Origin: Squalus acanthias
Taxonomy: Eukaryota
Reading direction: 5' to 3'
DNA: 64,000 nucleotides
NCBI GenBank assembly: GCA_030390025.1
Contig: CM059448.1
Location: forward strand, 14,880,001 to 14,944,000
Made by a program: the position numbers and the translations under genes. How positions within the stretch are numbered: the first letter of the stretch is position 1; each line of letters opens with the position of its first letter. This document shows positions 7,957-57,738 of this stretch, one piece after another. The notes under the pieces are model-generated. The model ran no database searches, was not told the DNA's origin, and was given only the letters and a program-made list of their open reading frames with translations.

Positions 7957-8094
7957 AAACAAAAGCAAAATACTGCGGATGCTGGAAATCTGAAATAAAA
8001 ACAGAAAATGCTGGAAATACTCAGCAGGTCAGGCAGCATCTGTAGAGAGAGAAACAGAGTTAACGTTTCAGGTCAATGACCTTTCGTCAGAACT
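7957..8094 (-). mobile_element. Short Penelope-like element end (family A) with minimal hammerhead
   Basis: Same sequence as the copies at 34.0, 55.7 and 57.4 kb; target-site duplication gtaactaacca (7946-7956 / 8112-8122). Confidence 0.75.
8058..8094 (-). ncRNA. Minimal type I hammerhead ribozyme motif
   Basis: agtt-CUGACGA-a-AGGUCA/UGACCU-GAAA-CGUU-aact: core, stem II, palindromic stem III and 4-bp stem I. Confidence 0.7.
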
Positions 8095-8375
8095 TAGCTG
8101 TACTGTTTCCAGTAACTAACCATACTGGAAACAGTACAGCTATGTCAGAACATAAAAAACATAATGCAAGAAAGAATTAATTGAACAAAAATGATAAATG
8201 TTCATGGACAAACTTGGCTCATAGAAATTAGATAAATATATATGCATGTTCTTGAAATAATTAACATCTCCAGCTGAAATTCAGAATTTGAGATGCATGG
8301 CGCATTATGCTCAGTTCATCTGCAGTTACTTTTATTAGTTTACAGTTACAAAAAAATTCAGTGTAGTATTTTTAC

Positions 8376-9242
8376 CTTATTAGATTTTGCATCATTATTA
8401 TCCATACATTTATCTCTTGCGTGGGCCAGGTTATCCACTGGAATCTGTCCCTGACCATCCTCAATCCGCTGCTCTTTTTCAAAAGTTTCCTGTGCAGCCA
8501 CTTTTGTAGCACTGTATTTCCCACCACCAAGCTCCTCGGTTTTTGAGTGTGATTGGACTCGAGCCCCATTCTCCTGTGAAAGCTCAATGAATTTTTCTCT
8601 GGCACTGAAGAAGTCAATTCGATCAGTACTTGAGCTGCAAATTCTAGCATCTGCATTAGATGAGACTGGGGAAGCTAATTCCGGTGAAGCTATATGATCT
8701 TCCAGCTGAGGTGCAATTTCAAGTAATGGTGCTGAAATGCCATTTGAGTTTAATCTAACATCTTTTTCCAATTCCTCTACTTCTAAATCAGTAAACACCA
8801 TGGGATGTTCAGGTGAAGAAGAAAGTTCATGTGACCAGGCTTCTGCTGGTTTGTCAGAGTGGCAATCTTGGAGAGAAAAAGCATCAGAGTTGCAACCTGC
8901 AAAACTCTTAGTGATAGTATTGGTGGTCACGGTTACTGGCATTGTTGTAGAAGAGTTCCGTTGTGCAAGTCATCGGGGTTACATTTTGAAGGTATTTCAT
9001 TTTCTGCATTGATCCCAGAATTTAATTCAATTTTTTCCTCATGGACTCCAGGTAAAATTGTGTCTAGGTCATCCAAGAATTGGGGATGATATAGATGTTC
9101 AGCAAGTGGATCAGTTGGCATTTCTGTAGTGGAAGTACTGTCCCTTCTGTTTAAGTCAACAGTAGATTTATTAATACGCTCACGGTGGTCAGAAAGGTCG
9201 CTATCAGAGTGCGATCGCCATAGCTTATTGTGCCTCTGTTTG
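8376..9242 (-). CDS. SSH2: SSH2 penultimate exon (KQRHNKLWRSHSDSDLSDH... / ...STDRIDFFSAREKFIELSQE...), with a frame break near 8933-8970
   Basis: gcag acceptor ending at 9243 and AAG/gtaaaa donor at 8375. Both halves resemble SSH2 but lie in different frames; 867 nt is one base short of phase consistency. Confidence 0.85.
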
Positions 9243-9439
9243 CTGCATTAAAAGAAAACAAACAAGAGGAATAGTTTAAATAAAAGTACTTCTACCACAA
9301 CTAAATATTCCAGGCAAGATACAACATGTGGTTATATAGGACTCAATCGCATTGAAACACCTCAAACATTTCATACAAATGACTGTTAAGTAGACAAAAG
9401 TACAGCAATTATTTCTTTCCCAGCAATATCCAACCAATG

Positions 9440-9832
9440 GCCTCTTGGAAATGTCTTAAAACATTTCACCTACAATAACTACTTTAAAGTACAGAGACTC
9501 TTGCTACTTATGCAAACATGGCATCCATTTTGCGCAGAAGCTCTCTCAAAGAGCAGCAAGATGATTGACCTATTAATCTATTTTTAGTGGTATTGGTTGA
9601 GGGAGGAATATGCGTCAGAACACCAGGTTCACTAACTATCTGAACTTACAGAAAGAGGGTCAGTTTAACTTTCATCATTTGGAGGATATCATCGCCAACA
9701 CTGCAGGACTCCTCTAGTACTACACTGGAGTGTCAGCCTAGATTATGCACTCAAGTCCTATTCAGGGGCTTGTACACTCAATCTTCTAATCCAAAGGTGG
9801 GCGAGAGTTCAGGCCACTGAGTCGAGTTGACA
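9440..9832 (-). mobile_element. Old tRNA-derived SINE (Deu/SacSINE-like), related to 38205-38642
   Basis: Shared blocks with the 38.2 kb copy (tactttaaagt.., agtactacactggagtgtcagc, ccactgag). Confidence 0.55.
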
Positions 9833-10489
9833 ATGGGGCGAGAGAAAAATATTTCCAAGTATCCAAAGTGTAACCATATCCCACCTACTTGAAACTATTT
9901 TTTGCGTGGATATAATGATCATATCATCCCTGGCAGCCAGACAGGCTGGCTTGATGCCAAATTTACAGAATCAATATAGATAATTTCCTCCTATTGTGCC
10001 CCATCATTCATTTTCTACATATAGGCAGTACTACACAGTGCAGACAAGACAGTAAATTCAACTTACTGCAAAGAGAAATAAAAAAGAAAAATTAGGACTC
10101 TCCAAATCCATTTTTGGAGGGGGAGGGGAAGCAACCTTTTGATCAGCCATAAATAATTATAGTATTTGCACAGGATTTTGCAGGATGGAAAAAGACTAAT
10201 TTATTATACAAGCCTCATTAGAAGGCTGAAATGATCCACCAAAGCATTTCTAATGCACTAAGCGTTGACTTCTTTACAGAATACCTGTTGATGAAAAGAA
10301 AATAAAGCAACCAGATCATCCATACAAGTCCCGCATCTGTAGATGGAAAGGTGTAGATAGATTATATTAGCCCAAAATGGATGTGTTTTTTGGGCACACT
10401 TTATTTTGATGTTTTTGTAAAGAATATTACACAATCGGTTACTGTAGTCATCCAAATGAGACTGCCTTCATGCATAAAGAGTCAGCCAA

Positions 10490-10925
10490 GTGTATTAACG
10501 TTAATGGGGGTGGGGGAGAAAAGAGAGAGGTCGCAATCCGGAGGGGGGGGGGGGGCGCTGTGGGAGGCCGAAGGTTTCCTCGAAGGGCAGGGGAGAACCC
10601 CTGCTACTCCTGGCCCACAAGGAGTGCTGAAAAAGGCAACTTAACTTGTGGAGCCGCCAGCTCCTGTCTCCCTTTCACTGCTGGGTTTCCCGATCCCTGG
10701 GAAAGCTGTGCAGCAAGTCGATTTTAAATCTGACTCCCAATCGTGAAAGCCAGATTTAAATATGTAATTAAGTGTCCCGCCTCTCCAAGCTGGGACACTG
10801 ATGCCCCAATATCCACTGCCCTAAAAAAGGCAGCAGGTGCATGTGTAGAGTATTGGGGACGCTTTTCCCGTATTTAACTCTTCAACTGCGCCCCCCTACT
10901 GTCGTGGGAGGATTAATATTGAGAC
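10490..10925. repeat. GC-rich decayed MITE-like repeat
   Basis: Abrupt GC/CpG-rich block similar in style to 37029-37708; ends unclear. Confidence 0.35.
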
Positions 10926-18185: not shown

Positions 18186-19734
18186 CAGCCAATTCGATTC
18201 ACTCCACGTGATATCAAGAAACGGCAGAGCGCACTAGATACAGCAAAGGCTATGGGCCCCAACAACATCCGGTTGTCGTGCTGGAGACTTGTGCTCCAGA
18301 ACTAGCCATGCCTCTAGCCAAGCTGTTCTAGTACAGCTACAACACTGGCATCTATCCGACAATGTGGAAAACTGCCCAGGTAGGTCCTGTCCACAAAAAG
18401 CAGGACAAATCCAATCCGGCCAATTACCACTCCATTAGTCTACTCTCGATCATTAGCAAAGTGATGGAAGTTGTAATCGACAGTGCGATCACGTGGCACT
18501 TACTCACCAATAACCTGCTCACTGATGCCCAGTTTGAGTTCCGTCAAGACCACTCTGCTCCCGACCTCATTACAGCCTTGGTCCAAACATGGATAAAGGA
18601 GCTGAATTCCAGAGGTGAGGGGAGAGTGACTGCCTTTGACATCAAGGCAGCATTTGACCAAGTGTGGCATCAAGGAGCCCTAGTAAAACTGAAGTCCATG
18701 GGAATCGGGGGACAAACTCTCCACTGGCTGGAGTCATACCTAGCACAAAGGAAGATGGTTGTGGTGATTGAAGGTCAATCATCACAGCCCCAGGACATCG
18801 CTGCAGGAGTTCCTCAGGGCAGTGTCCCAGGCCCAACCATCTTCAGCTGCTTCATCAATGACCTTCCCTCAAACATAAGGTCAGAAATGGGGATGTTCAC
18901 TGATGACTGCACAGTGTTCAGTGCCATTCATAACTCCTCAGATAATGAAGCAGTCCATGCCTGCATGCAACAAGACCTGGACGACATTCAGGCTTGGGCT
19001 GATAAATGGCAGGTAACATTCACGCCACACAAGTGCCAAGCAATGACTATCTCCAACAAGCGAGAGTCTAACCACCACCCCTCGACATTCAATGGCATTA
19101 ACATCGCCGAATCCCCTACCAACATCCTGGGGGTCACCATTGACAAGAAACTTAACTGGACCAGCCACATAAATACTGTGGCAACAAGAGCAGGTCAGAG
19201 GCTAGGTATTCTGCAGAGAGTGCCTCACCTCCTGACTCCCCAAAGCCTTTCCACCATCTACAAGGCACAAGTAAGGAGTGTGATGGAATACTCTCCACTT
19301 GCCTGGATGAGTGCAGCTCCAACAACACTCAAGAAGCTTGACACCATCCAGGTCAAAGCAGCCCGCTTGATTGGCACCCCATTAAACATTCACTCCCTCC
19401 ACCACCGGCGTACCGTGGCTGCAGTGTGTAACATCTACAAGATGCACTGCAGCAACTCGCCAAGGCTTCTTTGGCAGCACCTCCCAAACCCACGACCTCT
19501 TCCACCTAGAAGGACAAGGGCATGGGAATACCACCACCTCCAAGTCACACACCATCGTCACTGGGTCAAAATCCTGAAGCTCCCTACCTAACAGCACTGT
19601 GGGAGTACCTTCACCACACGAACTGCAGCGGTTCAAGAAGGCGACTCACCACCTCCTTCTCAAGGGCAATTAGGGATGGGCAATAAATGCTGGCCTTGCC
19701 AGCGACGCCCACATCCCATAAACGAATAAAAAAA
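18186..19734 (+). mobile_element. 5'-truncated LINE (CR1/L2 group) with a long reverse transcriptase ORF
   Basis: ORF 18362-19591: NPANYHSISLLS, FDIKAAFDQVWH, GVPQGSV, FTDD; 3'UTR ending aataaa...aaaaaaa. Confidence 0.92.
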
Positions 19735-21418
19735 TGTATTAGGTTAGAAAGAAGAGTTTGAGCATTGGAAAAACCTTTCCTTTCTGCTAATAATGCACTT
19801 TCCTATGCTGTTTGTATAAAATTTGAGATATACATGTACACCATCTATATGGATTCATTTAGATATTCAATGCTAGAAGATTGTATTTGATCTGTACAGA
19901 GTATTATTTTTCCAGATTAGGTACTACTTCCAGTGTTTGCGTTCATGGCAGAGCATCAAATGATAAAATAATTTTCCTGCATTACAAAGTTTTTCACTAG
20001 AAACCCATTATTTGGGAACCAGCCCAATTGATTGTAGCAAAGTGCAGCATATTGAGGTTCCATTAGATTCTACACTTTCTATAACAACTTTATAATTTAA
20101 CATAGATTGTGAGGAATGAAGAGACATAATTTCTCAATTCTACATCAAGCCACACCCAGTTCTTCCAGTTCTAGTGTATGTGGGCAATGCCTGCTTACAC
20201 TTCAAAGCCACTCAGCATCCAACATTATGATTATGTTTACAGCAACTATGTTTTTGGCATCTTTGTGAACGTAAATACGCAACTTATTAATTTTCCGAAT
20301 ACAATAATGAAACTTTTTTGTCCTATAACTGTATTCACTGAGTCATCAGGACCAATATTGGTTCATATTTATTATTCAGCTATTCTATCGCTTTAAAGTG
20401 ATCACTTATTCAGAATCAAGGATCAGTAACAACCATCAAAACTTTAAATGACATGAAATGCTGCACATTACACCCCAGGATTATTGTTAAGTGGTACATC
20501 ACTTGAAGGGCTATGTGTTTATAGGATTAAATTCAGCACAAGACTCACCTGTTAGTATGATACCTTCAGAACGTAATGCATTAGCAACCGGTTGCGAGTC
20601 TGGGAACTCCTAAAAATGCACTTTATAAGTGAGGTAGCACTACTGTGGTAAGTGTCATTGTAAGGGTTGGAGATAACTGTAAATTTATCTCCGGAGTCCA
20701 AATTTAAAAAATAGCAACACATTTTGGAATCCCTATTTCAAAACTGCAGCAATAAATATCTACTCTTGACTTTGTACCTATTTTACTTCCAAACTTTCAT
20801 TATCTTAAACATATAGCAACTATAATCAGAATTCCAACTGATCACATTTGCAGTACAAAATGTTTCCTCAATTTATTTGGGCCATCACATCTTCTGGCAC
20901 AGACTCGATGGCTGCCTTCTGTGCTGTACTATTTTATGACTCTGCACTACCAATATTTGAATTAGAAAGCTGACTTTCGTGTTAACACAAAAAGTGTTAT
21001 TTCGATGGGGCTAGTTTAAAAAAGATTTCAGTTGGTAACTACCCAACATCTCAAAGCTCTTTTCAAGCTGGTTTGAAACAAAATGACTTGAAACCAGACT
21101 GACTGACCATCTAATGTGCATTTTGATTGTGCAATAAAAATAATAGGATATGTAATGTGATACAAGATTAATAAATTACAGCTAAATTTATTGCAATTAT
21201 GTGGGGAGCAAAAGGCAGAGAAATCAGAACTAGAAAAGTTGTGTATGATCCCGACCATGCTGTAAATTGGGGTCAGATTGGAAGGAGTAGGGCATAAAGA
21301 TAGGCCATCATTTTCCACCAGACAATGCATATATACTGTATAGATTTTTAAATTTAAAACAAATACAATATTGATAAGAACCACCCAACACCAGAGACAT
21401 GTCCATTTAATTTCGTAC

Positions 21419-21565
21419 TTTGCTTTAGAGATGAATTTATACGTATCATTCCAATACGCAAGCAGATCTGTAGCCTCCTCATCATACACCCTGATATTAT
21501 GGTACTCAAATAGTCCTGGGAAGAAGTTATCAATTTCACGGGTGATGTTCAAGATGTACCGGATC
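21419..21565 (-). CDS. SSH2: SSH2 exon 12 equivalent: IRYILNITREIDNFFPGLFEYHNIRVYDEEATDLLAYWNDTYKFISKAK
   Basis: 147 nt, tttag/gtacga; contains the general-acid Asp (VYD). Confidence 0.95.
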
Positions 21566-22178
21566 CTAAATAGAAATATGAAGAAATTACCATGTTAGGA
21601 TTGGTTATTGCCATACAGAAAGTCTTTAAATTAAATATAACTTCCACTGCCAGGTACACAGGATGAAGTTTAAAAAAAAAAGGTAACTTTTTTGAGAATG
21701 TGAAGTTAAATATATTTTTCACATGTTTTGCATCTTGTAAAAGAGGTTTCTTTTAGATGGTTATAGTACAATGCAGTACCAAAACAAACATGACCGGCCT
21801 GCAGGGGGCGATAGCACCATTGTGATAATCTACAGGATGAATTAATGTGAAAGTTATTGACTAAAAAAACTGTTTGCAAAAGAAAACTGGATACAACCAA
21901 ACTGCCAGTGAAAAGCTTTATAGGGAGGTGTAGTCAACAAACGTGTGCTTATGTTATATTTAGCACATAATTAAACTTGCACCAGATGAGAAAGGATGAT
22001 TATTAACTGATCAATGGTGGCAAAATGTATTTCAATATTGACATTTGAGAACCCTGTTAAAATGGAAAATGCAGAGAATACACAGACTTGTAGCATTGAG
22101 TTTCCAACACACTATCGATCGGAGTGACTGGATACAAGTGCCCACCCATACTTTCCCACATGGTTGAGTTTCTGGCCC

Positions 22179-23050
22179 CATCGGAGACAATGCCATCAGA
22201 TGAAGCGTCAAGAAAGAACAATGTGTTTCCTCACAGGGAGGACAAAAGAAAGCAACAGAAATGAACAACAGAGGTTGTTCTTGCATACATCCTGGTAGTC
22301 AGCTCAATGGAAACATCTTCTTGCCCTCCCTTTCAATTGGGCAATAGAGCTAATTATATTCCATCTAATATTTACGCAATAAAACGGTTTTCAACATGAT
22401 AATTTTTCCACTTACAGATCACAATCATTAAATGCTTTCTAACACGTATAGCAACTGGGTAAAAAAAGGCTACCAATAAATGCCCCAAGCGCTAAAATAC
22501 ACAGGGAAACATGAATCAACAACACTACGGCTCTTTTAATTGACAAAAATAGGTTGTCGCTAGTGATTAAATAGAAAAGTGGCCGCAAGCATGTTTAAAA
22601 TATGCTGCTTAGTTCTTAAAGTCAATATGCTGTCTTGAGAGGAGTTAGATCCTACAGGTGTAACAAAAAGAACTGAATTATAGAAGAAAGAAGTTGTTGC
22701 TGGGAGAATAGGGATGGAAGGAACATTTCCAATAGAAAACACTCCCCTATTAAACTGCTACAATAAAAAAGTAGCTGGTAAGAAGCATTTCTATTTTTAA
22801 TCTTTTCTCTCTCCTCAGAAACCTCCTATTTCAGGTTTCTGCTCAGAGCTATAGCCCTGTCAGCAAAACAGCAAATTAGCTCTATTGCCCAATTGAAAGG
22901 GAGGGCAAGAAGATGTTTCCATTGAGCTGACGACCAGGATGTATGCAAGAACAACCTCTGTTGTTCATTTCTGTTGCTTTCTTTTGTCCTCCCTGTGAGG
23001 AAACACATTGTTCTTACTTGACGCTTCATCTGATGGCGTCGTCTCCGATG
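22179..23050. repeat. 177-bp inverted repeat (22179-22355 / 22874-23050) with a 518-bp spacer
   Basis: Arms are reverse-complementary with 4 mismatches counted by eye. Confidence 0.93.
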
Positions 23051-24984: not shown

Positions 24985-25500
24985 GATATACTTGCCATAG
25001 AGGGAGTGCAGCGAAGGTTCACCATACTGGTTCCTGGGATGGGGGGGGGATTGTCTGATGAGGACAGATTGATTAGACAAGGCCTATATTCTCTGGAGTT
25101 TAGAAGAATGAGAGGTGATCTCATTGAAACATACAAAATTCTTACAGGGCTTGACAGGATAGATGCAGGGAGGATGCTTGCCCTGGCTGGGGAGTCGAGA
25201 ACCAGGGGTCACAGTCTCAGAATAAGAGGTCGGCCATTTAGGACTGAGATGAGGAGAAATTTCTTCAGTCAGAGGGTGGTGAATCTTTGGAATTCTCTAC
25301 CCCAGAGGGCTGTGGAGGCTCAGTCATTGAGTATATTCAAGACAGAGATCAATACATTTTTGAATATTAAGGGAATCAAGGGATATGGGGATAGTTCAGG
25401 AAAGTGGAGATGAGGTAGAAGATCAGCCATGATCTTACTGAATGGCAGAGCAGGCTCGAAGGGCCAAATGGCCGACTCCTGCTCCTATTTCTTATGTATT
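24985..25500 (+). mobile_element. CR1/HER1 LINE 3' end
   Basis: Near-identical to 280-780. Confidence 0.92.
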
Positions 25501-28920: not shown

Positions 28921-31303
28921 TTTTGTCTGGTCCCTGGACAGAGTAACCACAATGGTTTAGTATTTTAATAAACACGTTATTTCACCTATTATTTTTAACT
29001 ATTAATCACATACATAGATGAAAGGGGGGGCTTTAACATACCGAGTCTCAAGACCTCTTCTACACACAAGCTATACGAAAACATTTGGAGGGCTTGACTG
29101 GTTTGATCTGTGCCATCTTCCCAGAATGTTGGAAATACTGTCATTGAACACTGCAATTTTAATCTGAATCTCTATATTTTAAGCTACCCATATTGCATCT
29201 GTTCACCTGCCATAGAAAGGTTGCACCATCAGCTTCCTAATAAGGTAGCAACTGGATGGTGTCTGTAAGTCAGTGGTTATCTGCAGTGCCCAACTTCTTA
29301 TCACGGTTAGTAAAAATAGTCTTCTTAATCAACAAAGACTGTCAGACGGGAGCCTATCTTCTGGACCAGTTAGTATCAACATGTTCAGATGTGAGACATG
29401 AAAGGTTTTGATTATCAGGTCATTTTTTTTTAATGTAATTTTGCACAAAAATTTATGCAGCAAAATAAATGGAGAAAAAAAACTTCAACCAACAATGTTT
29501 TGTTTCCTACTCAGCTATTTCAGGTTTACCAGAATAATTTTAACAGCCAACCACTCAGTGGAAGAACTTCAACTAGCCTAACAAAAAGAATTAAGACAAA
29601 GATGTGTAATGGATATTGGTGGTAATACATGACTACATTTTATTTCTATTTGATCAGACTGCTGTACAAGGTGTCAGCAGAAACACAGTTGTAGGACAGG
29701 AAAACCGGTTTTATTTGCTATATAGTGGGAAGCAGTTTTTAATTATATAGCTAATGTGCATTATAGAATTTTTAATCTTTTCAGGGTTTCCCCAGAAACA
29801 TTTCAGAGGTTGGCCTGGTGTATGGAATGGGAACGCTCCCAAGAAACCAAAGCAGGTGCAACTTTTGGTTCAAAGCAGCAGGTGACAAATTCAAAATGAC
29901 TGGTGTGACCTCGCACCCAATGGTAATTGGCCGATGAATAGCTTCATTCAGTTATGGGTAAAAAAAAAAAAGGCTGCAAATCAAACAGAAAATGCTAGAA
30001 TTGTACAGCATGCCCATCAGCATCTGAAACAGCTAAGTTAACTGGGTTCTGATGAGGGGAACATAACATATGCCTGCATGACGGGCACTGCATTTCAACA
30101 TAATTCACTACATGTGAAGTGCTTGGTGATGTTTTAGACAGACAGGATATAAGGCTATAGAAAAGAAAGACATTTTAATCCATCAATACAGCAATCTTAC
30201 TTGTATATACCTCCCTGTCCCAAGTACAAATTTAAGATCTATAGGTCATTGTTAAAAGGAAAGCAAGGGCAACATGAAGTCTTTAAAATCAGATGTAGTA
30301 AAATGTACAGATAGGAGCTCATTAATGATGTGTAACGGTCACATAAAAACACAACTGTAATCCCCCCAACCAGGCCTAAACCATGACCACCCATGAATCC
30401 TGCTGATTGTTATAATCAGGTCCCGTCTACCTGTTTAACCAGTATGTACATATTGGATACCTTGCCATTACTTTAAACCTTGGGTTGCAGTGCTAATTCT
30501 TCCCAAGTACTCCAGAATGTGCCCATCTCTTTTCTTCTTCTATATTTACAGGCGATGCAATTATTGCAAACAGAAAAATGTAACCATTGTGGCTTCAAAA
30601 AGACACATAATATTGAACATGTATGCAAAACACTGTACAAAATAGTTTACAGTGCTATCCTATTCCATTCTTCCCTTTTATCTCAATGAAATGGCATAAT
30701 GGCTGCAGCCCTTTAGAAGGAAAACATCTTGTGGTGCATTCCAGTTCTAAAATAAAGTTCACAAGTAAACTCTATGGACTAAAATTGAAGTTTTAAAAGC
30801 AAAAATCATTATGTATAAGGTCTCATCAGGGCTAAGGATCCCTCCTTTTGACTGCAACACTTCAGGAGAGAATTTAATCAGATATAAATGTCTAGGGATG
30901 AAAATCAAAACTTCTGTCTACTGAAGCATTTGTGTCTACATGCTACTATAGTGATAATAAAAGTTATGCTGATTCAAATTCTTTATTAAAGGCTGGAGGG
31001 AAAAATTCCCAGTACTTCCTCAACTGAAATAGTTAAAACCATAGAAGTTGACAGCACTGAAAGAGGCCATTTGATTCATTGTGCCTGTGCTGGTCTTGGC
31101 TGGAAAAATCCAAAACTAAACCCACTGCCCTGCTCTAGGAACACAGGAACAGGAATAGGCCACTTAGCCCCTCAAGCTTGTGCTGTCATTCAATTAGCTC
31201 ATGGCTCAATTAGATCAAGTAGATGCTAACCTAACCCCACGGCACTAAAAGGCTTTTACAGGATGCTGGGGCCTCAAAGATACAGTAATAGGAATGCACA
31301 TAC

Positions 31304-33302: not shown

Positions 33303-33305
<3 letters not shown>

Positions 33306-33760: not shown

Positions 33761-34043
33761 CTGCAAAGATAATGTAATCTAAAATTAGCATAGTTTCTGT
33801 ATACTATGTTGCACATTGTTTTATGCCGATATCTTCAGCAGAAAGGATTACAGAGAAGGCATAATCAATATAAGTCCATACAACTACAGTCTGTACTCAG
33901 CTCAAATACATTTGGAAAAAGTGAAAAAAACATTTAAACTAACAAGAATTAAACGACTGATATCAAGTGCTCTTGCTCTTGGATAAAAAGCCATGAGTTT
34001 AACAATGGGCTGAAGCACCTTCCACAGCACATTTTTCTCTTAC

Positions 34044-34176
34044 AAAAGCAAAATACTGCAGATGCTGGAAATCTAAAATAAAAACAGAAAATGCTGGAAA
34101 TACTCAACAGGTCAGACAGCATCTGTGGAGAGAGAAAGAGTTAACGTTTCAAGTCGATGACCGCGCGACAGAACTG
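34044..34176 (-). mobile_element. Penelope-like family A copy with mutated hammerhead core
   Basis: Matches 7957-8094; core reads CUGUCGC; degenerate duplication cattt(t/g)tctct at both flanks. Confidence 0.75.
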
Positions 34177-34699
34177 ACGGGATTTCCATTTGTCTCTTTA
34201 CCGTGTTCTGATTGTCACAGTGGAATGGTTTCAATCCTCTAATACATTTTTAAATCTTCAAGTTGAGATCAATTGTATGCAAGGCTAAATATTTGTATTG
34301 TAGGATGAGCACAGTTTTGGTGAGCTTAAGCATATCAAAACATAATTTAAGTCAGCCATTCAGCTGGAGCTGCAATGTGCCAAAGAAAAAAAATGAATGA
34401 ACTTGGTCTGAGCAAACTCCAGACGGTTTTCTCAGTGCATTACTGCTCCGACTGAATCCATAATTTTATTTTTCTTCTGCACTGGCTCGCCTAACATTGG
34501 CTTCACCCAATAGCCAGACAGCACAGAAACAATAGAGATGTAGACACAATATTTTTGAATATAGATATCTGCAGTATGCAGAAAAAACTTAAACCAGTAT
34601 ACGGAAAGTGTAGATTGCATTTATATTATATCAAATTATGTGTAATTTAACATATAACCACCACTTGTGCAGTCCAGATTTTGGAAACTGTGCTTGTGA

Positions 34700-39749: not shown

Positions 39750-39970
39750 AATTGCAGGAAATCTGAAATAACAAAAGATGTTAGAAATGAACAACAGATC
39801 AGTCTACATCTGTAAAGAGTAAATGCAGGTTATGACAATTCGGGTATGTACCTTTCATCAGAACAGACGACTTCTGATGAAAGATACACATTCAAAATGT
39901 CATAACTTGCCTTCCCTCTTTATAGATGCTGTCTGACCACCTGTGCATTTCCAACATTTCCTGGTTTTAT
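39750..39970. mobile_element. Old fold-back Penelope-like element with decayed hammerheads
   Basis: Inverted arms pivoting near 39865 (ctttcatcagaa / ttctgatgaaag); resembles family A. Confidence 0.6.
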
Positions 39971-40873: not shown

Positions 40874-41577
40874 GGCCTGTATTTTCCGACGCCTACGGGT
40901 GTGCACGAGCTGTGTACACACCCGTACGGACATCGAAAATGCCGGTTTTAGGCATGTGAAGCACATGGGCTGAAAACCGGCATTTCCGATCTGTCAAGGA
41001 TCCTCTTGACAGATCGGACGCCTGCCCTGGAGAAGGGCCTCTGCGGGTGGAGTGTTCCGCTTTCTGCAGAACCTCTGCCCGCTGAAATCACTTAAAAATC
41101 TTACAGCTGGTAAAAGCCTGCTTTTACCAGCATAAGAGTTTAAAAAAGTAAAAACATTTTTTCCACTCATTTATAATTTCAAAATAATTTTTTTTTAAGT
41201 TTATTTTTAGCCCCGTAAAAAACTAATTTATTTTTCAAAAATTAAATTTGTTTAAAATAATTAATGTAATTTTAACTAATTTTAAAAATGTGATTTAAAA
41301 AAATGTATTTAATGTTTTGATGTCTTTTTGGGATGATCTAAGCTGTCAAAAGTATGAAGGGAGATTCCCTTCTCCCATTGGCTCCCATGGCCCACAGGAT
41401 CCCAGGGACGCTTGCGAACCGCATGCGCCCCTGCGATACGTGGGCCCTGCGCATTTCGTCGTGGACAGGCCCAGGAGCAGAAATGGCCGGACCTCTGGAG
41501 CACTCAGGTAAGGGCGTAGATTTTTCCAGATCGGAGGCCTCCGCACGCAGGAAGCGTCCGATTGAAAAATACGGGCC
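40874..41577. mobile_element. Harbinger-like MITE, same family as 50170-50799
   Basis: Inverted ends ggcctgtattttccga / ttgaaaaatacgggcc; colinear with the 50.2 kb copy. Confidence 0.8.
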
Positions 41578-42320
41578 AATGAGTAGAAACTAAACACAAA
41601 GCAAATCCCATCTAGTGGAGTGACTGAATTTGTTTAAACGATGAAATTCAAACATTCAAATACTTAATGTCATCTGTAAACAGGAATAAAAGACCAAACT
41701 AGATTTAAATAATGTCTCATTTCTTTTACAGTAACTGTACATTAAGCACTACACATTAGTGTCTGGTCCAACTCAACAGTAAAGTCAACCCTGTAGTGAA
41801 TATATAACTGCACACAACAGATTTTTTAAATACAGCAGTCATTGATTTGGTTTGATATATCCAAGGTCCACTATAATTCTGAATGTAAATTCATTAAAAG
41901 GGAACTGACTGACTGTTGTTTTAGAAGTTCTTGGAAAAGTAAAAATTGCAATCAAGTAAACTTCAAGGTTTTAGAAAATGAGAAACTACTGTAACTCTTT
42001 GAATCTCTAAACCTCAGTATTTTAAAAAAATCTTATGCAATAGCACTAGGCACTACAGTACCTTTTCCAGATAAGACTTGGAGGTTTTAAAAACAGGCTC
42101 CAAAAAAAATTTCTTACAGCGAAATAATGTGTAAAGTTGCTGATCCTAGAACTCTAAGTTCATTAACTTTCATGAATGCTATTTTTGAAAATTAAGATGG
42201 CTCAAATGAGATTGTGTCAACATAAATACAAATCCAGACCACAAAATCTACTGTGTTGGTGCACAGGACATGGCAACACAACATTTCATGCCACCACTAT
42301 GATGTCCTGTTTGATAAATC

Positions 42321-42443
42321 CTGACGAAGGAGCAGCGCTCCGAAAGCTTGTGATTTCAAATAAAGCTGTTGGACTATAACCTGGTGTTGTGTGACTTCTC
42401 ACATTTGTCCACCCCAGTCCAACACCGGCATCGCCACATCATG
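42321..42443 (+). mobile_element. Short Penelope-like element end (family B) starting at the hammerhead core
   Basis: CUGACGA-a-GGAGC/GCUCC-GAAA-GCUU-guga; target duplication gataaatc (42313-42320 / 42444-42451). Confidence 0.75.
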
Positions 42444-43665
42444 GATAAATCAAGCGGCAGAGTTTAAATGTGGCCGCTGATGCTGACCAGCAACATGGTA
42501 CAATGGCTATATCTAGGAGGGGTGAGCGTTGGTACTGCAGGACTCTGGCACGAAGATTTACACAAGAACCTTTATTTTCCTGCTAGGGCTCTGGGAGAGT
42601 ACCATTCATGTAGAGACCTGCGATCTACAAGTGCCAATCTGTACACTTTGCCTGTGAACCTCTGGTTCCCCAATGCAGAGCGAATGTCAAGAGATTCTAG
42701 TTTTTCCATGTCTCTGACCTCTACTCTTGGGAACCATGAGAAGTTGGGGGTCTGAGTGCTGGAGGCAAGCAATTTGTCAGCTTTATGTTTTAGTGTGCCA
42801 ATGGCAGGAGTACCAAGCTTCTGCCAATGATCGTACATTATCTTATAAAAGTGCTTCACGTTTCTCTTTAGAATTTAATTTGCACTAGAATCATTTCAGA
42901 AAAAGATAGTATAAATATAACCGTATAAAACTATTGCGAATAGAATGAAGGCTGATTTCCACTTATAGTGAACAATTTCTGCTATATATAGGTCAGAAAC
43001 TTTAACAGATTATTTCAAATATCAGTATGAATCTGGCAACTGAAAGTAGCAATTTTTGGGTGGATGATAATACCCTGCATTGTGACTATCTTACACTTGA
43101 CTACTGCAATAAATGGCTACACTATGGGAGCTATTTTTCTCTTATTTAAATTTTTTTTAATTTATCCTTCCCTTTCTAGGTTCCACTTCGCAAACTATGC
43201 GCCACTCCTCAACTGAGCATCATCAGGCAAGCTCATCATTGACCATTGCCAATGCCACTCTGGGTCAGCAGTAAGCAGTACACAAAAGATTTCAGATATG
43301 GTACCTTTCCAATTCTCCAATTCCCAATGTAGAGAGTGCCAAGCCCCTGCTTCACACCTCGCCATATAATGAATCCCCAATTTTAGTAAGGGGGGAGGGG
43401 CAATGGGTAGGGTTGAGTGAGTGAATCAACCCAGTGTTCTTGCATAGCGCTCGATTCAAGGTCAGAGTTGGCTAACGGCCTGCAAACAAGTCAGCTGCTC
43501 ACCCCCTCACTTGGTTGAATGTAAATGAGAATATGAAACAACAAATACATTTCTGTGGGAAAATTTCCCATTGGTTTTGCCAAAGGCACAGTTCTGAGCA
43601 TAAAATCTGCATCAATCCACTGAAAAGAAAAAGCAGAGGAATTTGCATATACACGGATAACTCAC

Positions 43666-45540: not shown

Positions 45541-46762
45541 AATATAAATGCATTCTTTTACAAGACTGTGTAGTAAGCACTTAAGTGAATAATGGCAACA
45601 CATGCCAAGTAATAAGGGAATGAAAGATGGGTAAATAAAGATAGGAAATGATTAATTTCCTCTCAATATCACCTTCAGGAAGTAGATGGGAGTTAAACAA
45701 GTCTGGCAATCTCATACGCTGGTGAGCCTTGAAATACACTAAAGTAACAGGACAGCAAACTGGTAGTTGCAGCTCTTCAAAGCCCTTAGGACACCTACTG
45801 TTTCAATTGCAAGCTGAAGTATAGCCTACAGAGGGGCTGGGCACAACGACTATTTAATCAGATTCGCTGGATGCCCAGATCTATGCTTCTACTGTGGGTT
45901 TGGTTATATTGTTCCTTTAACATTGATGAAGGGTTATGCATCAATGTAAAAATGGCAGCATAACTCAGGAAACTACCAAGTGCACTAATGCTGGGAGGTA
46001 CGAGACCTCTTTTGCAGGCCATCTCACACTAGTTTAAATCTGCACGGAGTACAGTACAATTCCAGTCTTATGGTCTGCTATCATTACTTGCAACAGCTTG
46101 CCTCATGCCAGATATTAAGGAGGAATTATTCATGACAACACTGGGCTAGATTTTACTTTGGAGTGGGTGGGAAGGAAGGAAATTGCAGAAACAAATCCTT
46201 AAACAATTTTGATTTAAAATCATGTGTGCAAGCAGGATACATGATGTTATATGCAATTTCCTCTACCATCTTTTCTGTCAAACATGTAAATTAATTTACC
46301 ACTTCAGGAGTTTGTGGCTGAGAGAGATTTTTGTAAAGAAGGAATCCTACATCAGGTATTCAGTGGATGAACTGCAAATTACCACAGTGATGTTAGTTGG
46401 TAAGTCTGAGTCATGTGATTTTTTTCCAGTTAGCCATTCATTTGTGTAATCTGCTATGCATTACACAATGTTGTCATTTCACATCAGTACTAATGAAACT
46501 AAATGCGTGATTTAATATGTAAATGTTTCATTTGTTGCAGGTGAACTAGCGCTTACATTTGTGCTAAAAGAAACCTAAATTTATCACAATCTTTGCTCCC
46601 ACATTTTTGAAGTTGCTTCATTAAAGCATTCAAGTGAATGGAAATAATCCTCGACACCCCATTCTATACTCAACAGTGCAATATATTAGGACTTTACTTC
46701 GAAACAAATAGCTGTTAAACTAGTAAAAATATTCTGTTAGTCATTAATGGCACATTTTGTTT

Positions 46763-46969
46763 TTGATGCGGAGATGCCGGTGTTGGACTGGGGTGGACAA
46801 AATTGAGAGGTCGCACAACACCAGGTTATAGTCCAACAGTTTTATTTGAAATCACAAGCTTTCGGAGCTATCGATCGCCCCTTCCTCAGGTGAAGTAGTA
46901 AAGAAATACTTTACTACTTCACCTGAGGAAGGGGCGATCGATAGCTCCGAAAGCTTGTGATTTCAAATA
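46763..46969. mobile_element. Penelope-like family B fold-back insertion
   Basis: Reverse copy of the 42321 sequence plus a perfect 62-bp hairpin; duplication acattttgttt (46752-46762 / 46970-46980). Confidence 0.8.
46919..46960 (+). ncRNA. Minimal hammerhead motif (mirror copy on the minus strand at 46852-46893)
   Basis: ucac-CUGAGGA-a-GGGGC/GCUCC-GAAA-GCUU-guga. Confidence 0.7.
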
Positions 46970-47261
46970 ACATTTTGTTTCGCCATCTGCAGCCCTGAAA
47001 TGGTCAGAAAACCAAAGTAAATATTGCACCACTAGAACTTGGGTGCACCAGAGAGGTGGTTTGTCCCACACCAAAGACAACATAAATTGACAGTGACTTA
47101 ATGTAGATGAACATTTTTTGGCCTCCCGGTGGATTGAGTGATTACAGCACTCATGCTCAGTTTGTGCAAGCCTACCATATACAGGCCAGCAACCTTTTGC
47201 TCATAGTGGCCTGTATGGAATGTGGAGAGGATGGGGAGGGGTAGCAGGTGGGGAGTGTGGA

Positions 47262-47716
47262 GAGGATGGGCTGTCCTATGAGGAGTGATTGAGTAGAATG
47301 GGCCTATATTCTCTGGAGTTTAGAAGAATGAGGTGATCTCATTGAAACATTTAAAATTCTTAGAGGGCTTGACAGGGTAGATGTTGAGAGGCTGTTTCTC
47401 CTGGCTGGAGAGTCTAGAACTAGGGGGCACAGTCTCAGGAAAAGGGGTGAGCCATTTAGGACTGAGATGAGGAGAAATTTCTTCATTCAGAGGGATGTGA
47501 ATCTTTGGAATTCTCTACCCCAGAGGGCTGTGGATACTCAGTCATTGAATATATTCAAGACTGAGATCGATAGATTATTGGGCACGAAGGGAATCAAGCG
47601 ATATGGTGATAGGGCGGGAAAGTGGATTTGAGGTAGAAGATCAGCCATGACCTTATTGAATGGCGGAGCAGGCTTGAGGGGCGTATGACCTACTCCTCCT
47701 TCTTATGTGCCTATGT
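47262..47716 (+). mobile_element. CR1/HER1 LINE 3' end
   Basis: Matches the copies at 1-780 and 24985-25500. Confidence 0.92.
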
Positions 47717-49119: not shown

Positions 49120-49462
49120 ACATAAAGATGCAGTAGATGCAATTTATCTAGATTTTCAAAAGGCCTTCGATAAGGTACCACATAATAGACTGATGATCAA
49201 ATTCAGAAGAAACTTCTTTACCCAGGGAGTGTTGCGAATGTGGAACTCGCTACCACGGAGTGGTTGAAGCGAATAGTATAGCTGCATTTAAGGGACGATT
49301 AGATAAGCATATGAGGGAGAAGGGAATAGAGGGTTATGCTAATAAAGTTAGATGAGGAAAGACGGGAGGAGGCTCGAGTGGAGCATAAACACCAGCATGT
49401 ACTGGTTGGGTCGAATGGCCTGTTTCTGTGCCGTATATCCTAGGTATGTAATCCTATGTATG
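49120..49462 (+). mobile_element. CR1 LINE fragment with internal deletion
   Basis: AVDAIYLDFQKAFDKVPH joined directly to RRNFFTQ..WNSLP and a 3' tail. Confidence 0.8.
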
Positions 49463-50169: not shown

Positions 50170-50799
50170 GGCTCGTATTTTCCAATCCCTACGGGTGTGT
50201 ACGCTCCCGTAGGGACCGCGTAAGTGTCAGTTTCAGGCATGCAAAGCGCATGCGCTGAAAACCGGCATTTCCGATCTGTCAAGAATGCTCTTGACAGATC
50301 GGACACCTGCCCTAGAGAAGGGCCTCTGCAGGGGGAGCGTTCCGCTTTCTGCAGAACCTCCGCCTGCTTTTACCAGCATAAGAGTTTAAAAAAAGTATTC
50401 CCCCCCCCCCCCACTCATTTATAATTTAAAAATACTTTTAAAAAAGGTAAATTTTTACCCCCATAAAAAAATTCTCTTTAAAATTTAATTTAATGTAATT
50501 TTAAAAAGGTGATTTAAAAAAAATTATTTAATGTTTTGATGTGTTTTTTCAGTGATCCCCATTCATACTTCTGACAGGTCTAACTTGTCAAAAGTATGAA
50601 GGGGGATTCCCTTCTTTTATTGGTTCCCCATGGCCCACGTGATCCCAGGGACGCTTGCGAACCACATGCGCCCCTGGGATACGTGGGTCCTGCGCATTCC
50701 ATACAGCAGAGGCCCAGGAGCGGAACCTCAGAAGGGCGTAATTTTTTCCAGATCGGAGGCATCCGCACGCAGGAAGCTTCCGATCGGAAAATACGGGCC
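50170..50799. mobile_element. Harbinger-like MITE
   Basis: Inverted ends ggctcgtattttccaatc / gatcggaaaatacgggcc; homologous to 40874-41577. Confidence 0.8.
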
Positions 50800-52607: not shown

Positions 52608-52860
52608 TGCCCTGCACCCCTTCCAAGGCCAATATATCTTTCCTGAGGCGTGGTACCCAAAAATGAACGCAGTACTCCAGATGGGGTCTGATGAAGGTTC
52701 TGTACAACTGAAGCATTACTTCTTAATTTTTTTAATTCCAAACCCACTTGAAGTGAAGGCCCACATTCTATTTGCATTTTGTAGCTGTGTGCACGTGGAC
52801 ACCAACAGCCCTTTGCTCCTCCACTGCTCCTAGTCTCTCTCCATTAAGAATATAGGACAA
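52608..52860 (-). mobile_element. CR1 LINE fragment
   Basis: LQLYRTFIRPHLEYCVHFWVPRLRKDILALEGVQ. Confidence 0.8.
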
Positions 52861-53487
52861 TCTCAGTATACCATTGGACTGGCTCTGCTTTCTTTACACT
52901 GGGTATAGAAGCAATGGGGTTGAAGTTACCCTGCAGTCAAGTGCAAAGTAAAATAATTTTGTGATGCATGGTGTCTTCTGTGGTAAGGAGCCAAGATGCA
53001 GAAATTCTCAAGAAACGTATTCTTAATTAGGAAAAGATATAAAAGACTAAAAAAGGTACAGTGGTCATTGCCTTTTGTACCATCGAATGCTGCCTCTGAC
53101 TCCACAAAGAGAAAAATATAAGAAACAATGCAATAGTGCTGGATCAATGAACGTACAAGGTTTCTCAGGGGGGAAAAAAAAAGAGGGCAATCTAATCTGA
53201 CTCAAAACATCACACATAGCCAAACTGGTATACGGTACTGCACCAATGGATTCTGACAGACAATAAAATTGGGCTGAGGCATATAATTTAGAATGGATGG
53301 GAGATGGTTAATATAGGACGTTCAACTGTATTTACAAACAATTTTTGTTATAAACACTAGAACGGGCAGCACTTCAAATAAATAAAAGTTACCATTTTTG
53401 GTGCAACTCCCTCACTGTTTACAAAGCCCGTACAATACAAAAGTGGCTCATTCTGGAATGCTAAACATGCCTTTTTTGTGACACAAT

Positions 53488-54227
53488 GGCCCAGAAATTG
53501 ATCTCGCTCTGTTCCCGCGGGGGTAAGGAGCAGGCGCGATCTCTCACTCCGCGTTGGCTTTTTCAGATCCAGCTCGCACAAACTTGATGTTCCAGACATC
53601 AGCTGGGCAGTGCTTGCGTATCCCACCGGCGTAGTGAATTCGTGCGAGCTGTGGGATCACGTGACTCAGTTAGAGCCAATGGCAGCACACCATCTTCCAT
53701 TCATAAGTTTCACATACGTGCTGTGAAAGCTATGAATCTTACACCTCCCCAAAATAACAGCTAAACCTCAATTAAATTTAAAAGAAAAACCATCACATTA
53801 ATAAAATAAGTATAGTTAAATAAATTAACCATTTTAAATAAAAAATTAAATTTTTGAAAAAATTTAAAATCTTTTAAAGTTATAAAAATAAACTTACCTG
53901 TCTTTAAAGTCTCTAAAAAAGATATACTGGTTAAAAAAAATTCAAAAAAACTTAATTCACTACTTACCTTGTTAAAAGTGGGTCTTACTCCTCCTTTTTC
54001 CATTTCTAAATTCTTCCGTCCTTACCTGCGCGTCCAAAGCACGACGTGCACAGCATGCGCGCAGCCTGTAGCGCGCACGCGATGCACCGAGGAACCGCCC
54101 CCTTTTCCAAAGACCAAGTGCCGGTTTTCAGCGCATGCGCAGGGCATGCAGAAAACCGGCAATTGGAGAGAGAATACGTGAGAGTACGCAGTGCGTACTC
54201 TCGCGCAGCGGGATCAATTTTTGGCCC
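53488..54227. mobile_element. Harbinger-like MITE
   Basis: Inverted ends ggcccagaaattgatctcgc / gcgggatcaatttttggccc; AAT duplication. Confidence 0.8.
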
Positions 54228-55680
54228 AATATACCAAAACTATTTTTCTTTGTGTGGGGTGGAGTGGACCAGAGCAAGGGAAGAAGAAAAACACACTAGC
54301 GATATAATTCTTGGCGATTTATGAAAAAGAGCGGAGTTATATGTCAAAATTAATAAATTGTGACGTCCTGGTCTTGTTGCAAGTTGCTATACAACAGCCA
54401 TATGTTGGACAATTAATTTATTCTTCTCCACACCCACCACTACATAGTTATGTACAAAGTTCTAATTATAATGCATATACTACTACCTGCATTATAGCTC
54501 ATGTTCCTCTGTGCTCCATACTTCAAAATTAAATTAGCATGTTCCAAAATTGGATTGCAGCTAGGATAATACGCACATCATTACATTAATTTAAAATATT
54601 TTTAATGAAATAGCCGATTAGTTGAGGAATTATGTTAAGAACACATGATCAAAGAAATAGGAGCAGGAGTAGGCCATTCAATCGTTGGCTTCAATTCCCC
54701 ACACCGTGAAATCAGATTTTATTTAGGTTTTGGGGCAGACACTTGTGCAGCAAATGTTTACTGCTGTAATGACAGAAGTTTTAATTATGCACAGGTCTGA
54801 AGTAAACTGCTGGAGTCCTGCTTGGTTACGCAGCCTAAATCCAAACCTAGAAAGAAGAATTAAGCGCACTGACGTAATAAAGACTCACTACGCACTTGGT
54901 TGAACATAAAGCAAGGCTGGATCCCACGACGATGATATCAACACTCCGCACCCCTATGAAAATGACGCCCCACTTAGGACATCGGGGGATCTGCCGGCAG
55001 CGCTACCGGATCAACTCGGGAGTCTTTATTACGTCAATTTAATCGACTTGTAACAAAACATGGAGGTCTAGTTAGCAGTCACTAGCTTCCTGTTTCCAGA
55101 TTGTCTCTCCCCAAGGTGGGCCCACGCCCGAGTAGTTATACTCCCTGGACGGCGCCCCAGCTGGCCGCCCAGTAGTACTTCCTGAGTTACTTCTTGTAGA
55201 AGTTGCGATTTATGACACGCACATCATTTGGATTAAAGATTAAGCTGCAAATTCAAAACAAATGCAAATGGACAGATATGGAATGAAATGGGTCTTTGAT
55301 ACATTTCACATCAAACTACCCATATGCTGTAAAAGAAGCATCAACAGCTATAGACAAATTTCTCTCATCTTTCAGTCATGCTTGTGTGTAAATTGAGGAG
55401 ATACCTGCCACTCCCTATATTACACTCAACTGTTGAAGATTAGTCTGCCAAATTATAGTATGCACCGAAAAACATAAGCAAGATTCTCCTTGAAGGAAAA
55501 ATGCCGGAATTCCAAGAACACATCTGCAACAATTTGCAATTAGGGATTTCCCTTCTTTTCAATGCTACACAGCACGAACTCGACTCAAATTTCCTCAAGC
55601 AATTGTACATTTACCAAAATATAGTACAAACTCCAATAGAGCCATGCTGTTATTGCAACTGCATATCTTGCAACCCTAAC

Positions 55681-55817
55681 ACAAAAGCAAAATACTGCGG
55701 ATGCTGGAAATCTGAAATAAAAACAGAAAATGCTGAAAATACTCAGCAGGTCAGGCAGCATCTGTAGAGAGAGAAACAGAGTTAACGTTTCAGGTCGATG
55801 TTCCTTCGTCAGAACTG
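55681..55817 (-). mobile_element. Penelope-like family A copy
   Basis: Matches 7957-8094; duplication tatctt(g/a)caacccta (55664-55678 / 55822-55836). Confidence 0.8.
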
Positions 55818-56602
55818 TATTTATCTTACAACCCTATAGGGAAAAATAAAAAATTTTATAGCCCTCATAAAAAGAATGAGGGCACCTTTCAAGAATAAGC
55901 ACATTTTAAACTTCACTATCAATATCTAAGATATAGACACGAAGATTACTCAGTTGTGACTCAAAGACTATGTGCATAGTCATTTCACATTGTTAAACCC
56001 AGTTACCAAATGTACTTGGAAAAATGCTCTTAAGAGTCTAAATGGTCATGACTATACATTGGACAGGTGCCTTTCATTCCATGTCATAATTTTTGAACAA
56101 AATAGATTTTTGATCTATGATGTCCAAAAATATGTTGGTTCATCTTACCATGTTCATTAAATTTTCAACTTACTACAAACACCAGCATTTCTGTATTACT
56201 TAATGTACCAGATTAGTAGCAGAATAAGGACACAATTAATACCAAAATATAAAAACACCATCAGGAAAAACAATTGACACGAGAACCTTTACTTACAAAA
56301 CAGTTTTAGTATGCCTCAAAAATCTAAGGAAAACATTTACTAAATAAGGCACTTTCTAAAAGTTGCATGTACATAGGTAGATAAAGTCATAAGACCACTA
56401 GCATTTTGGGCTTTATAAATAAGGGTATAGAGAACGAGAACAAAGAGGTTATGATAAATTTGTACAAGGCAATGGTTAATCCACAGCTAGAGCACCGTGT
56501 GCAGTTTTGGATGCCCCATTACATAAAGGACATTAAAGTATAGCGAGCATTTCACGTTGATTCACCAGGATGATACGAGGGATGGGAAACTATAGTTATG
56601 AG

Positions 56603-56781
56603 CAATGTTCCCGCTAAGGTATATGCGTGCGCGCGTGGCCGTGCATTAATCTGAAAGGTCCCACGCAGGCCACTCACCGGCTTTTACACTGTAAATACCA
56701 CGCATGCGCAGAAATTTAAAGGGCCCGCACACTAAAAGAAACAGGCCGAGCAGAACAAAATACAGCTTACATGGAACATTG
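56603..56781. mobile_element. hAT-type MITE nested in CR1
   Basis: Inverted ends caatgttcc/ggaacattg; 8-bp duplication gttatgag/gttacgag. Confidence 0.8.
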
Positions 56782-57009
56782 GTTACGAGTTTAAAAAAAA
56801 AAGAAACTTGAGATTCTGGAAATATTTCCACTGGAGCAGAGAAAGCCAAGAGAAGATTTAAAAGGAGGTTTTTAAAATAATAAAAAAAGGTTTTGATGGA
56901 GTGAAAAGGGAGAGACCATGTCTTCAGGTTGAGGAATCAGTGACAAGGAGTCATCAATTAAAATAAGAGTGAGGAGAGAAGTTGGAAGAAATTTCTTTAT
57001 GCAGAAAGA

Positions 57010-57156
57010 GCATGAAATGCTTTGCCACAGGGTGTGGTTGTGTCAGATAGCACTAAAAAAGCATGAAATGCTTTGCCACAGGGTGTGATTGAGTCAGAGA
57101 TCACTAAAAAGCATGAAATGGTTTGCCACAGGGTGTGGTTGAGTCAGAGATCACTA
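57010..57156 (+). repeat. Three tandem copies of a 50-51 bp unit
   Basis: gcatgaaatg at 57010, 57061 and 57111. Confidence 0.9.
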
Positions 57157-57362
57157 CGTATTTTAATGGAAGAGTAGATAAACACTTGTCGTAGATAATG
57201 ACGTACGGCTATGGGGAGAAAGCAGGGCAGTGAGATTAGTTTTGGATTGCTCTAGCAAAGATGGGACACGGACCATATAGGCCAAATGGGCTCTTCCTGT
57301 GCTGTAAAACTTCTATGTTTGTACAAATCTCTAGGGCAGTCTACATGTATGATTATACTGGA

Positions 57363-57738
57363 ATAAAAACAGAAAATGCTGGAAATACTCAGCAGGTCAG
57401 GCAGCATCTGTGGAGAGAGACAGAGTTAACGTTTCAGGTCGATGACCCTTCGTCAGAACTGGAAAAAGTTGGAGATGGAACAGGTTTTTAAGCAAGTGCA
57501 GGGGCAGGGAAAGGGGGGAGGGGAGGAAAGAACAAAAGGGAAGGTCTGTGGTAAGTCCCTGCCCCTGCACTTGCTTAAAAACCTGTTACATCTCCAACTT
57601 TTTCCAGTTCTGACGAAGGGTCATCGACCTGAAACGTTAACTCTGCTTCCCTCTCCACAGATGCTGCCTGACCTGCTGAGTATTTCCAGCATTTTCTGTT
57701 TTTATTTCAGATTTCCAGCATCCGCAGTATTTTGCTTT
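57363..57738. mobile_element. Penelope-like family A fold-back insertion with hammerheads on both strands
   Basis: ~149-bp inverted arms (57362-57510 / 57556-57705); 17-bp duplication tgtatgattatactgga (57346-57362 / 57739-57755). Confidence 0.85.
57606..57642 (+). ncRNA. Minimal hammerhead motif (mirror copy on the minus strand at 57424-57460)
   Basis: agtt-CUGACGA-a-GGGUC/GACCU-GAAA-CGUU-aact. Confidence 0.7.

Follow-up and report, generated by a model that had tools for sequence, protein, structure and literature searches.

Hammerhead-bearing insertions in the window

The window analysed here is a 64,000-nucleotide stretch of the Squalus acanthias genome (assembly GCA_030390025.1, contig CM059448.1, positions 14,880,001 to 14,944,000). 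It contains short insertions that carry a minimal hammerhead ribozyme motif and fall into two families, A and B, which we interpret below as ends of Penelope-like retrotransposons. A pattern search for CUGANGA-A-stem II-GAAA finds the motif at window positions 8066-8090 (-), 42321-42345 (+), 46860-46889 (-), 46923-46952 (+), 55788-55812 (-), 57432-57456 (-) and 57610-57634 (+). A loose form of the pattern gave 16 matches against a shuffle mean of 5.6, and none of 100 shuffles reached 16. The full minimal-hammerhead descriptor, which requires the core, stem II, U-H and stem I, was run on 264 kb (the window plus 100 kb on each side). It returned 21 matches, all of family A or B, compared with 0-2 in each of 20 shuffles; the hammerhead-motif inserts proposed in a first-pass annotation of this DNA are thus real.

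Six named insertions hold eight hammerhead-like arms, which are ~80-97% identical to the pseudo-long terminal repeats (pseudo-LTRs) of full-length copies elsewhere in the genome. At 8.0 kb, a family A solo end with the long (tailed) 3' end lies on the minus strand (7959..8094) and is 90-93% identical to the pseudo-LTRs of full-length loci L124 and L125. It contains an intact minimal hammerhead (8058-8094) and is flanked by a 13-bp target duplication with 1 mismatch (7946-7958 / 8112-8124). At the 5' end of this insert, 8095-8112 is an 18-bp inverted copy of the host flank 8125-8142, just beyond the target duplication, which points to a template switch onto the target DNA. Two more solo ends of family A lie on the minus strand: 34041..34176 (target duplication 34030-34041 / 34187-34198), with its core broken to CUGUCGC, and 55681..55817 (55664-55678 / 55822-55836), with two mismatches in stem II. 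The family B solo end on the plus strand, 42320..42444 (42313-42320 / 42444-42451), is 95-97% identical to the 5' pseudo-LTRs of full-length loci L116, L117 and L119. Its 3' limit is the start codon of the parent open reading frame (ORF), and it ends inside stem I, lacking the 5' strand of that stem.

The remaining two are head-to-head double insertions with two intact hammerheads each. The family B double, 46764..46970, joins a tailed arm (46764-46900, -) to a short arm (46912-46970, +) between target duplications at 46752-46762 and 46970-46980, with predicted cuts at 46856/46855 and 46956/46957. The family A double, 57358..57741, joins an untailed arm (57358-57543, -) to a tailed arm (57546-57741, +) between duplications at 57346-57364 and 57739-57757, with predicted cuts at 57428/57427 and 57638/57639. 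Older, decayed relatives of family A are seen as a head-to-head pair at 39753..39970 (72-79% identity to family A) and an end at 29974..30062 on the minus strand (74% over 53 nt).

These measurements refine the first-pass annotation. Its insert sizes of ~120-380 bp agree with the measured ~125-385 bp, and the cut that it placed between 8062 and 8061 on the minus strand is correctly positioned. All six inserts do have a target duplication (13, 12, 8, 11, 15 and 19 bp in window order, with 1 mismatch in four of the six), so that the range is 8-19 bp and not 8-17 bp. The claim of full pairing and an unbroken catalytic core holds for five of the eight arms (8.0, both 46.8 and both 57.4 kb), the other three (34.0, 42.3 and 55.7 kb) being damaged; the 'ucac' described for the 42.3-kb copy is absent, since its stem I is truncated. 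AACGUU and AAGCUU are palindromic as noted, but in the standard hammerhead numbering only 4 nt (ACGU or AGCU) form helix III, the outer A14 and U17 being part of the core. The double nature of the 46.8- and 57.4-kb inserts had been overlooked, as had the decayed relatives at 29.97-30.06 and 39.75-39.97 kb.

Full-length parent elements

The search for attached Penelope reverse transcriptase (RT) and GIY-YIG frames that the annotation had suggested succeeded for both families. The genome comprises 3.71 Gb. Walks upstream from longer copies led to GIY-YIG frames for A and B alike; the protein searches for parents scored 150 of ~54,000 and ~59,000 candidates. A DNA search of the genome with the 3' UTR lying upstream of the 57.4-kb arm gave no match, which carries no weight because common words are passed over in that search. 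Full-length family A elements are found at L124 and L125, with 1004-aa open frames between two hammerhead-bearing repeats and hammerheads ~3.2 kb apart; full-length family B elements, with 920-aa open frames, are found at L116 and L117. The layout is pseudo-LTR, ORF (RT plus GIY-YIG), pseudo-LTR, and the likely ORF start follows closely after the hammerhead. Pseudo-LTRs or partial tandems flank the ORF at L124, L125, L116, L117 and L119. One such partial tandem of family A, L125:3334-8402, consists of an ORF end, a pseudo-LTR, the full 1004-aa frame and another pseudo-LTR, an arrangement that would supply two hammerheads per transcript.

The A and B proteins are 32% identical. Both carry DKG, YIDD, a CX4CX2C linker and, around GIY-YIG, C..C plus two His. 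The linker, of the form CX2-5CxxC between RT and endonuclease (EN), occupies residues 870-878 in A and 782-790 in B; it marks the Neptune/Nematis type (PMC8557442; 10.1101/2021.04.23.441226), with the choice of Neptune over Nematis resting on the vertebrate host. Pfam RVT_1 scores above the cut-off for B and below it for A, and GIY-YIG just below it for A. Proteins named from three shark genera are 93-94%, 80-86% and 82% identical to the family B protein, which by itself indicates a shark-like host.

The family B motif lies ~120 nt upstream of the first Met and is therefore not coding. The family A motif lies inside the open frame, whose start is uncertain (Met 34, 50 or 89). In a young A sub-family (L124:4366) the core CUGAUGA gives an in-frame AUG (Met 34), where the window sub-family (57610) has ACG. 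Pyrimidine tracts ending in CAG stand directly before the family A core and before Met 50 and are possible splice acceptors; a sequence resembling a splice acceptor also lies within stem I of family A. No GT..AG joint was found among the 15 listed of 186, from contigs of four presumed-RNA runs, which do not reveal RNA ends and are evidence neither way.

Insertion anatomy across the genome

Insert structure was studied in a sample of 1.134 Mb taken by position, made up of 264 kb around the window and 870 kb on 18 other contigs. The sample holds 74 A and 55 B arms. Away from the window the density is 55 A and 39 B arms per Mb, which extrapolates to roughly 200,000 and 145,000 arms. Hammerheads are intact in 10/40 of the sampled A arms and in 27/44 of the B arms.

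The 3' ends are bimodal. Counted from C3, they fall at ~+90-100 and +130 in A and at +85-92 and +123 in B; inserts stop at one of two fixed points ~35 nt apart. The 5' ends of the sampled arms are continuous, from inside the hammerhead to >1 kb upstream, with full-length copies elsewhere. Both fixed end points lie 55-100 nt beyond the cut site and many inserts cross the motif, so the template must have been uncut or re-ligated.

Head-to-head pairs account for 68 of the 129 arms. Among the 34 pairs, 24 combine a long and a short arm, 1 has two short arms and 9 have one arm outside both groups. Duplications of 12-19 bp flank 26 of the 34, compared with 25 of 300 random spans. The core-to-core distance runs from -111 to +2089 nt, and junctions vary. 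Microsatellite targeting was not seen in the target duplications. No tandem non-coding units, nor units of fixed length lacking a coding parent, were seen; the window copies are dispersed.

Two apparent regularities of the 5' ends were set aside. Alignments to reference sequences suggested a pile-up at the 5' edge of the hammerhead (22 of 55 B arms; in A 17 versus 5 in the flanks, p=3e-5), which arises in part from sub-families with other upstream sequence. When core-to-core distances within pairs were used instead, the excess was not significant (B, 5 versus 4 in flanking bins, p=0.14; A, 1 versus 3); we do not claim it, and it may persist for solo A ends. Sharp 5' ends at 'TAAGTT' among best matches reflect query-selection bias and are absent from the unbiased sample.

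Hammerhead variation and folding

Genome-wide searches with exact patterns count 34,519 A motifs, 65,141 canonical B motifs and 3,753 B motifs with a CCGA core, with 0 matches for reversed controls. Both families fit the consensus CUGANGA, an extra base, stem II, GAAA, palindromic N-N, U-H and stem I. The annotation had proposed excess conservation across genomic copies as part of its refuting test. As a criterion this is poorly posed, since decay in dead copies is neutral; the variants to be compared are those inherited by lineages. The 'covariation' that it saw between A and B compares two distant families, and the informative covariation is found inside family B.

Among 26 B insertions, one stem I pair is C-G in 18 and U-A in 8, and one stem II pair is A-U in 20 and G-U in 6. 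N7 is C in 16, G in 8 and A in 2; N17 is U in 23 and C in 3; loop II takes 15 forms. Departures in the core are U4C (2), C3A (1) and G12A (1). A second compensatory pair closes stem II in CCGA-rich B sub-families, passing from C-G to U-A through U-G. In an alignment of 17 chosen B variants, 169/170 cells pair; its rows are related and hand-picked, 3/17 recurrent variants with single mismatches having been left out and three window arms added, so that shuffle values for this alignment cannot be read as probabilities. The pair G10.1-C11.1 is present in 24 of the 26 B insertions, and in 25 A insertions the same pair is G-U in 13 and A-U in 11; four arms with deletions or mis-anchoring were dropped from these counts. 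Family A is more decayed than B. Within B, inherited changes keep the fold, with compensatory pairs in the stems and free variation at N7, loop II and N17.

Of the core changes counted genome-wide, the commonest is U4C, which gives CCGA. Its 3,753 motifs compare with 79 for U16.1C, 192 for any change of A6 and 156 for any change of A14. Among the first 100 motifs listed of each kind, counted by hand, a GGAGU stem II accompanies 71 of the CCGA motifs and 1 of the canonical ones. Motifs in head-to-head pairs number 40/100 for CCGA, 2/79 for U16.1C, 0/100 for A6 and 2/100 for A14 (again the first 100 listed). Of 30 loci fetched, 20 of them CCGA, 5 have CCGA copies joined to GIY-YIG frames. Clustering in the GGAGU sub-family, head-to-head pairing and GIY-YIG linkage together indicate that CCGA is inherited from source elements, and the 29 of 100 listed CCGA motifs on other backgrounds suggest repeated gains.

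A peach viroid with the U4C change is reported to keep self-cleavage (PMC9608096); elsewhere U4C is described as considerably lowering activity in vitro, yet leaving enough in vivo (PMC3088659). The core change is the same, but in the viroid it is a rare variant of an RNA replicon, whereas here several retroelement sub-lineages have inherited it and their copies in the genome run to thousands. A literature search for hammerhead U4C or CCGA in retrotransposons found no report for Penelope elements, subscription literature and Repbase being outside the search.

Relation to described elements

The link that the annotation drew to the minimal hammerheads of Penelope-like pseudo-LTRs is borne out: the same sequences form the ends of full-length elements with RT and GIY-YIG. 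The metazoan motifs of Cervera and De la Pena 2014 (PMC4209133) share the consensus CUGANGA-H-stem II-GAAA-N-N-U-H with a short stem I, the extra base after A9, palindromic 15.2/16.2, mostly solo copies and dual copies on opposite strands 100-700 bp apart. Coelacanth rows there show family A's G-U or A-U at 10.1-11.1, and a turtle row shows family B's GCUU. The ~103,000 exact matches found here compare with ~4,000 in coelacanth and ~9,000 in Xenopus, under differing search rules. The searched supplement text, a part of file 2 (file 1 unsearched), names no cartilaginous fish, and the part of the supplement rows compared contains no CCGA core.

Like Neptune-clade Penelope-like elements with an endonuclease (PMC8557442; 10.1101/2021.04.23.441226), the parents have a C-terminal GIY-YIG with CCHH, the CX2-5CxxC linker and DKG, as well as partial tandems, an inverted 5' copy and a 30-40 bp tail on one end. 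They differ in showing no microsatellite targeting, and the clade is assigned from linker and vertebrate host. Poseidon of Anolis carolinensis (Frangieh et al. 2024, PMC11167929) also has a hammerhead at the pseudo-LTR-ORF junction, a pair of neighbouring end points that produce the tail, and an uncut RNA template; it is without the linker finger, and its ORF begins at stem II, whereas that of B begins at the tail end. Non-LTR retrozymes (PMC7229834; 10.64898/2026.07.22.740005) share the type I hammerhead and the relation to pseudo-LTRs, but are tandem non-coding units, whereas A and B are scattered ends, solo or inverted, of elements that encode protein. Penelope-like elements are expanded in the whale shark (10.1101/443036). 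No paper describing these shark families was found in a search that excluded subscription literature and Repbase. Their kind is already described; the only additions are the copy number (~100,000 motifs) and the sub-lineages with a core change known from a viroid.

Interpretation and alternatives

The inserts are very probably 5'-truncated pseudo-LTRs of two autonomous Neptune-type Penelope-like retrotransposons, whose minimal type I hammerhead would probably need dimer formation or element protein in order to self-cleave. Cleavage of the RNA is predicted after position 17. The abundance and retro-insertion origin proposed in the annotation are upheld by genome-wide motif counts, end points and target duplications. 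Its view of non-autonomous families in their own right is not, because the same sequences end full-length RT plus GIY-YIG elements and the 5' ends run continuously.

Several observations weigh against this reading or limit it. An Rfam scan gave no hammerhead family among 12 matches at E<=5, and folding z-scores are ordinary (-0.84 to +1.45). In the best fold of the family A monomer the cut site is base-paired to the core (-9.1 kcal/mol, against -6.0 for stems I+II), and the dimer helix of 4 bp has little stability (-1.7 and -2.5). Minimal motifs of this type had low or no activity in published tests (PMC4209133), 1/9 frog retrozyme dimers cut (10.64898/2026.07.22.740005), and the Anolis ribozyme needed protein, with cleavage dispensable for insertion in vitro (PMC11167929). 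The 5' ends do not pile up at the cut site, with 3/74 A and 1/55 B arms within +26..+37. Since a duplication of at least 12 bp was one of two criteria for accepting a pair, the duplication count is slightly inflated. The genome-wide core-change counts cover U4, U16.1, A6 and A14, seven other core positions lying outside them.

As a mechanism, we propose that element protein would cut both target strands 12-19 bp apart and that reverse transcription would be primed at two internal sites near the ORF start, on uncut (or re-ligated) sense RNA. Most cDNAs would stop early, and two would be joined head to head at their ends. The layout of an inverted copy plus tail has been described (PMC3846280; 10.1101/2021.04.23.441226), and two internal RT starts explain it (PMC11167929). 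The hammerhead would serve a different step, probably the trimming of tandem or read-through transcripts, either in dimeric form via the 4-bp palindrome or with the protein as chaperone; it would likely be selected in source elements and be a passenger in inserted copies.

Two alternatives concern how the short copies arise. They might be a self-propagating non-autonomous family, SINE (short interspersed nuclear element)- or retrozyme-like, transcribed from solo pseudo-LTRs and mobilised in trans: most copies are short and many start near the hammerhead, pseudo-LTR sequences sufficed for trans mobilisation in a rotifer (PMC3846280), and retrozymes derive from pseudo-LTRs (10.64898/2026.07.22.740005). 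We regard this as very improbable, given that 5' ends and inversion junctions vary by copy (core distance -111 to +2089 nt), that these hammerhead variants also occur attached to GIY-YIG ORFs, that window copies are dispersed without tandem units and that the apparent pile-up at the hammerhead 5' edge is not significant in pairs (B p=0.14). The inverted arm, in turn, could come from fold-back self-priming on an antisense template or the first cDNA and not from a second target-primed start, as proposed in PMC3846280. Palindromes or overlaps at some junctions fit such an origin, as does the inverted host-flank copy of the 8.0-kb insert, which shows DNA-templated switching. It sits poorly with the two arms almost always stopping at different fixed points (24/34 long plus short) and with either arm being able to extend further upstream than the other. 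Rare core changes, moreover, are nearly always confined to one arm (both arms in 1 pair among 79 for U16.1C and, in the first 100, 0 for A6 and 1 for A14), a pattern that later mutation also predicts. We consider fold-back priming unlikely.

The function of the motif is a separate question. Hammerheads of Penelope elements have low activity alone, and cleavage is dispensable in an in vitro assay; two young open-frame families with ~100,000 motif copies and lineage variants offer a test bed for the role of catalysis through genome statistics and natural variants. Treating these copies as a natural mutational scan, we lean slightly towards purifying selection on self-cleavage in the source elements even though the inserted template is uncut, source lineages accepting only changes that hammerheads tolerate, including CCGA, a core reported so far from viroid-like RNAs and here amplified to thousands of copies in several sub-lineages. 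The motif could instead persist because it binds protein or positions the RT, or because it overlaps a promoter or coding sequence, with cleavage irrelevant and the CCGA lineages reflecting relaxed constraint; this bears on function only and is compatible with Penelope pseudo-LTR identity. Copies that reach the motif do carry it uncut, catalytic mutants of the Anolis element remained able to insert in vitro and RNA-seq gave no reads ending at its cut site (PMC11167929), U4C considerably lowers activity in vitro (PMC3088659), and the family A motif is within the open frame. Yet inherited changes fall at hammerhead-tolerant positions (N7, N17 as U/C, U4C, loop II, compensatory pairs), changes at three essential positions do not rise above background, and the B motif is non-coding, ~120 nt upstream of the first Met; we hold the structural account to be rather doubtful. 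Should the purifying-selection reading be true, the genome itself would show that the element's cycle in vivo depends on the ribozyme step, even though in vitro it can be omitted.

Other features in and near the window

The minus strand carries host-gene exons at 21031-21594, 8361-8969 and 4971-7232, with a weak DSPc phosphatase match (E 0.0033, below the cut-off); the gene may be Slingshot-like. Between the two long frames on this strand lies the intact 8.0-kb hammerhead, in the same orientation. An element at 22179-23050 has 177-nt terminal inverted repeats that are 98% complementary, resembling a miniature inverted-repeat transposable element. An internally palindromic repeat family, likely derived from a DNA transposon, is present at 40911-41577, 50196-50799 and 53607-54164, and short tandem arrays with 70-nt and 50-nt units occupy 60513-60740 and 57005-57155. 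Long interspersed nuclear elements (LINEs) are represented by 3' ends and an RT-bearing fragment (RVT_1) at 280-764, 24986-25497, 47272-47713 and 18332-19588. At another locus, L121:3-2162, a 720-aa open frame with RT-, RNase H- and integrase-like motifs, presumably Gypsy-like, adjoins a family B copy.

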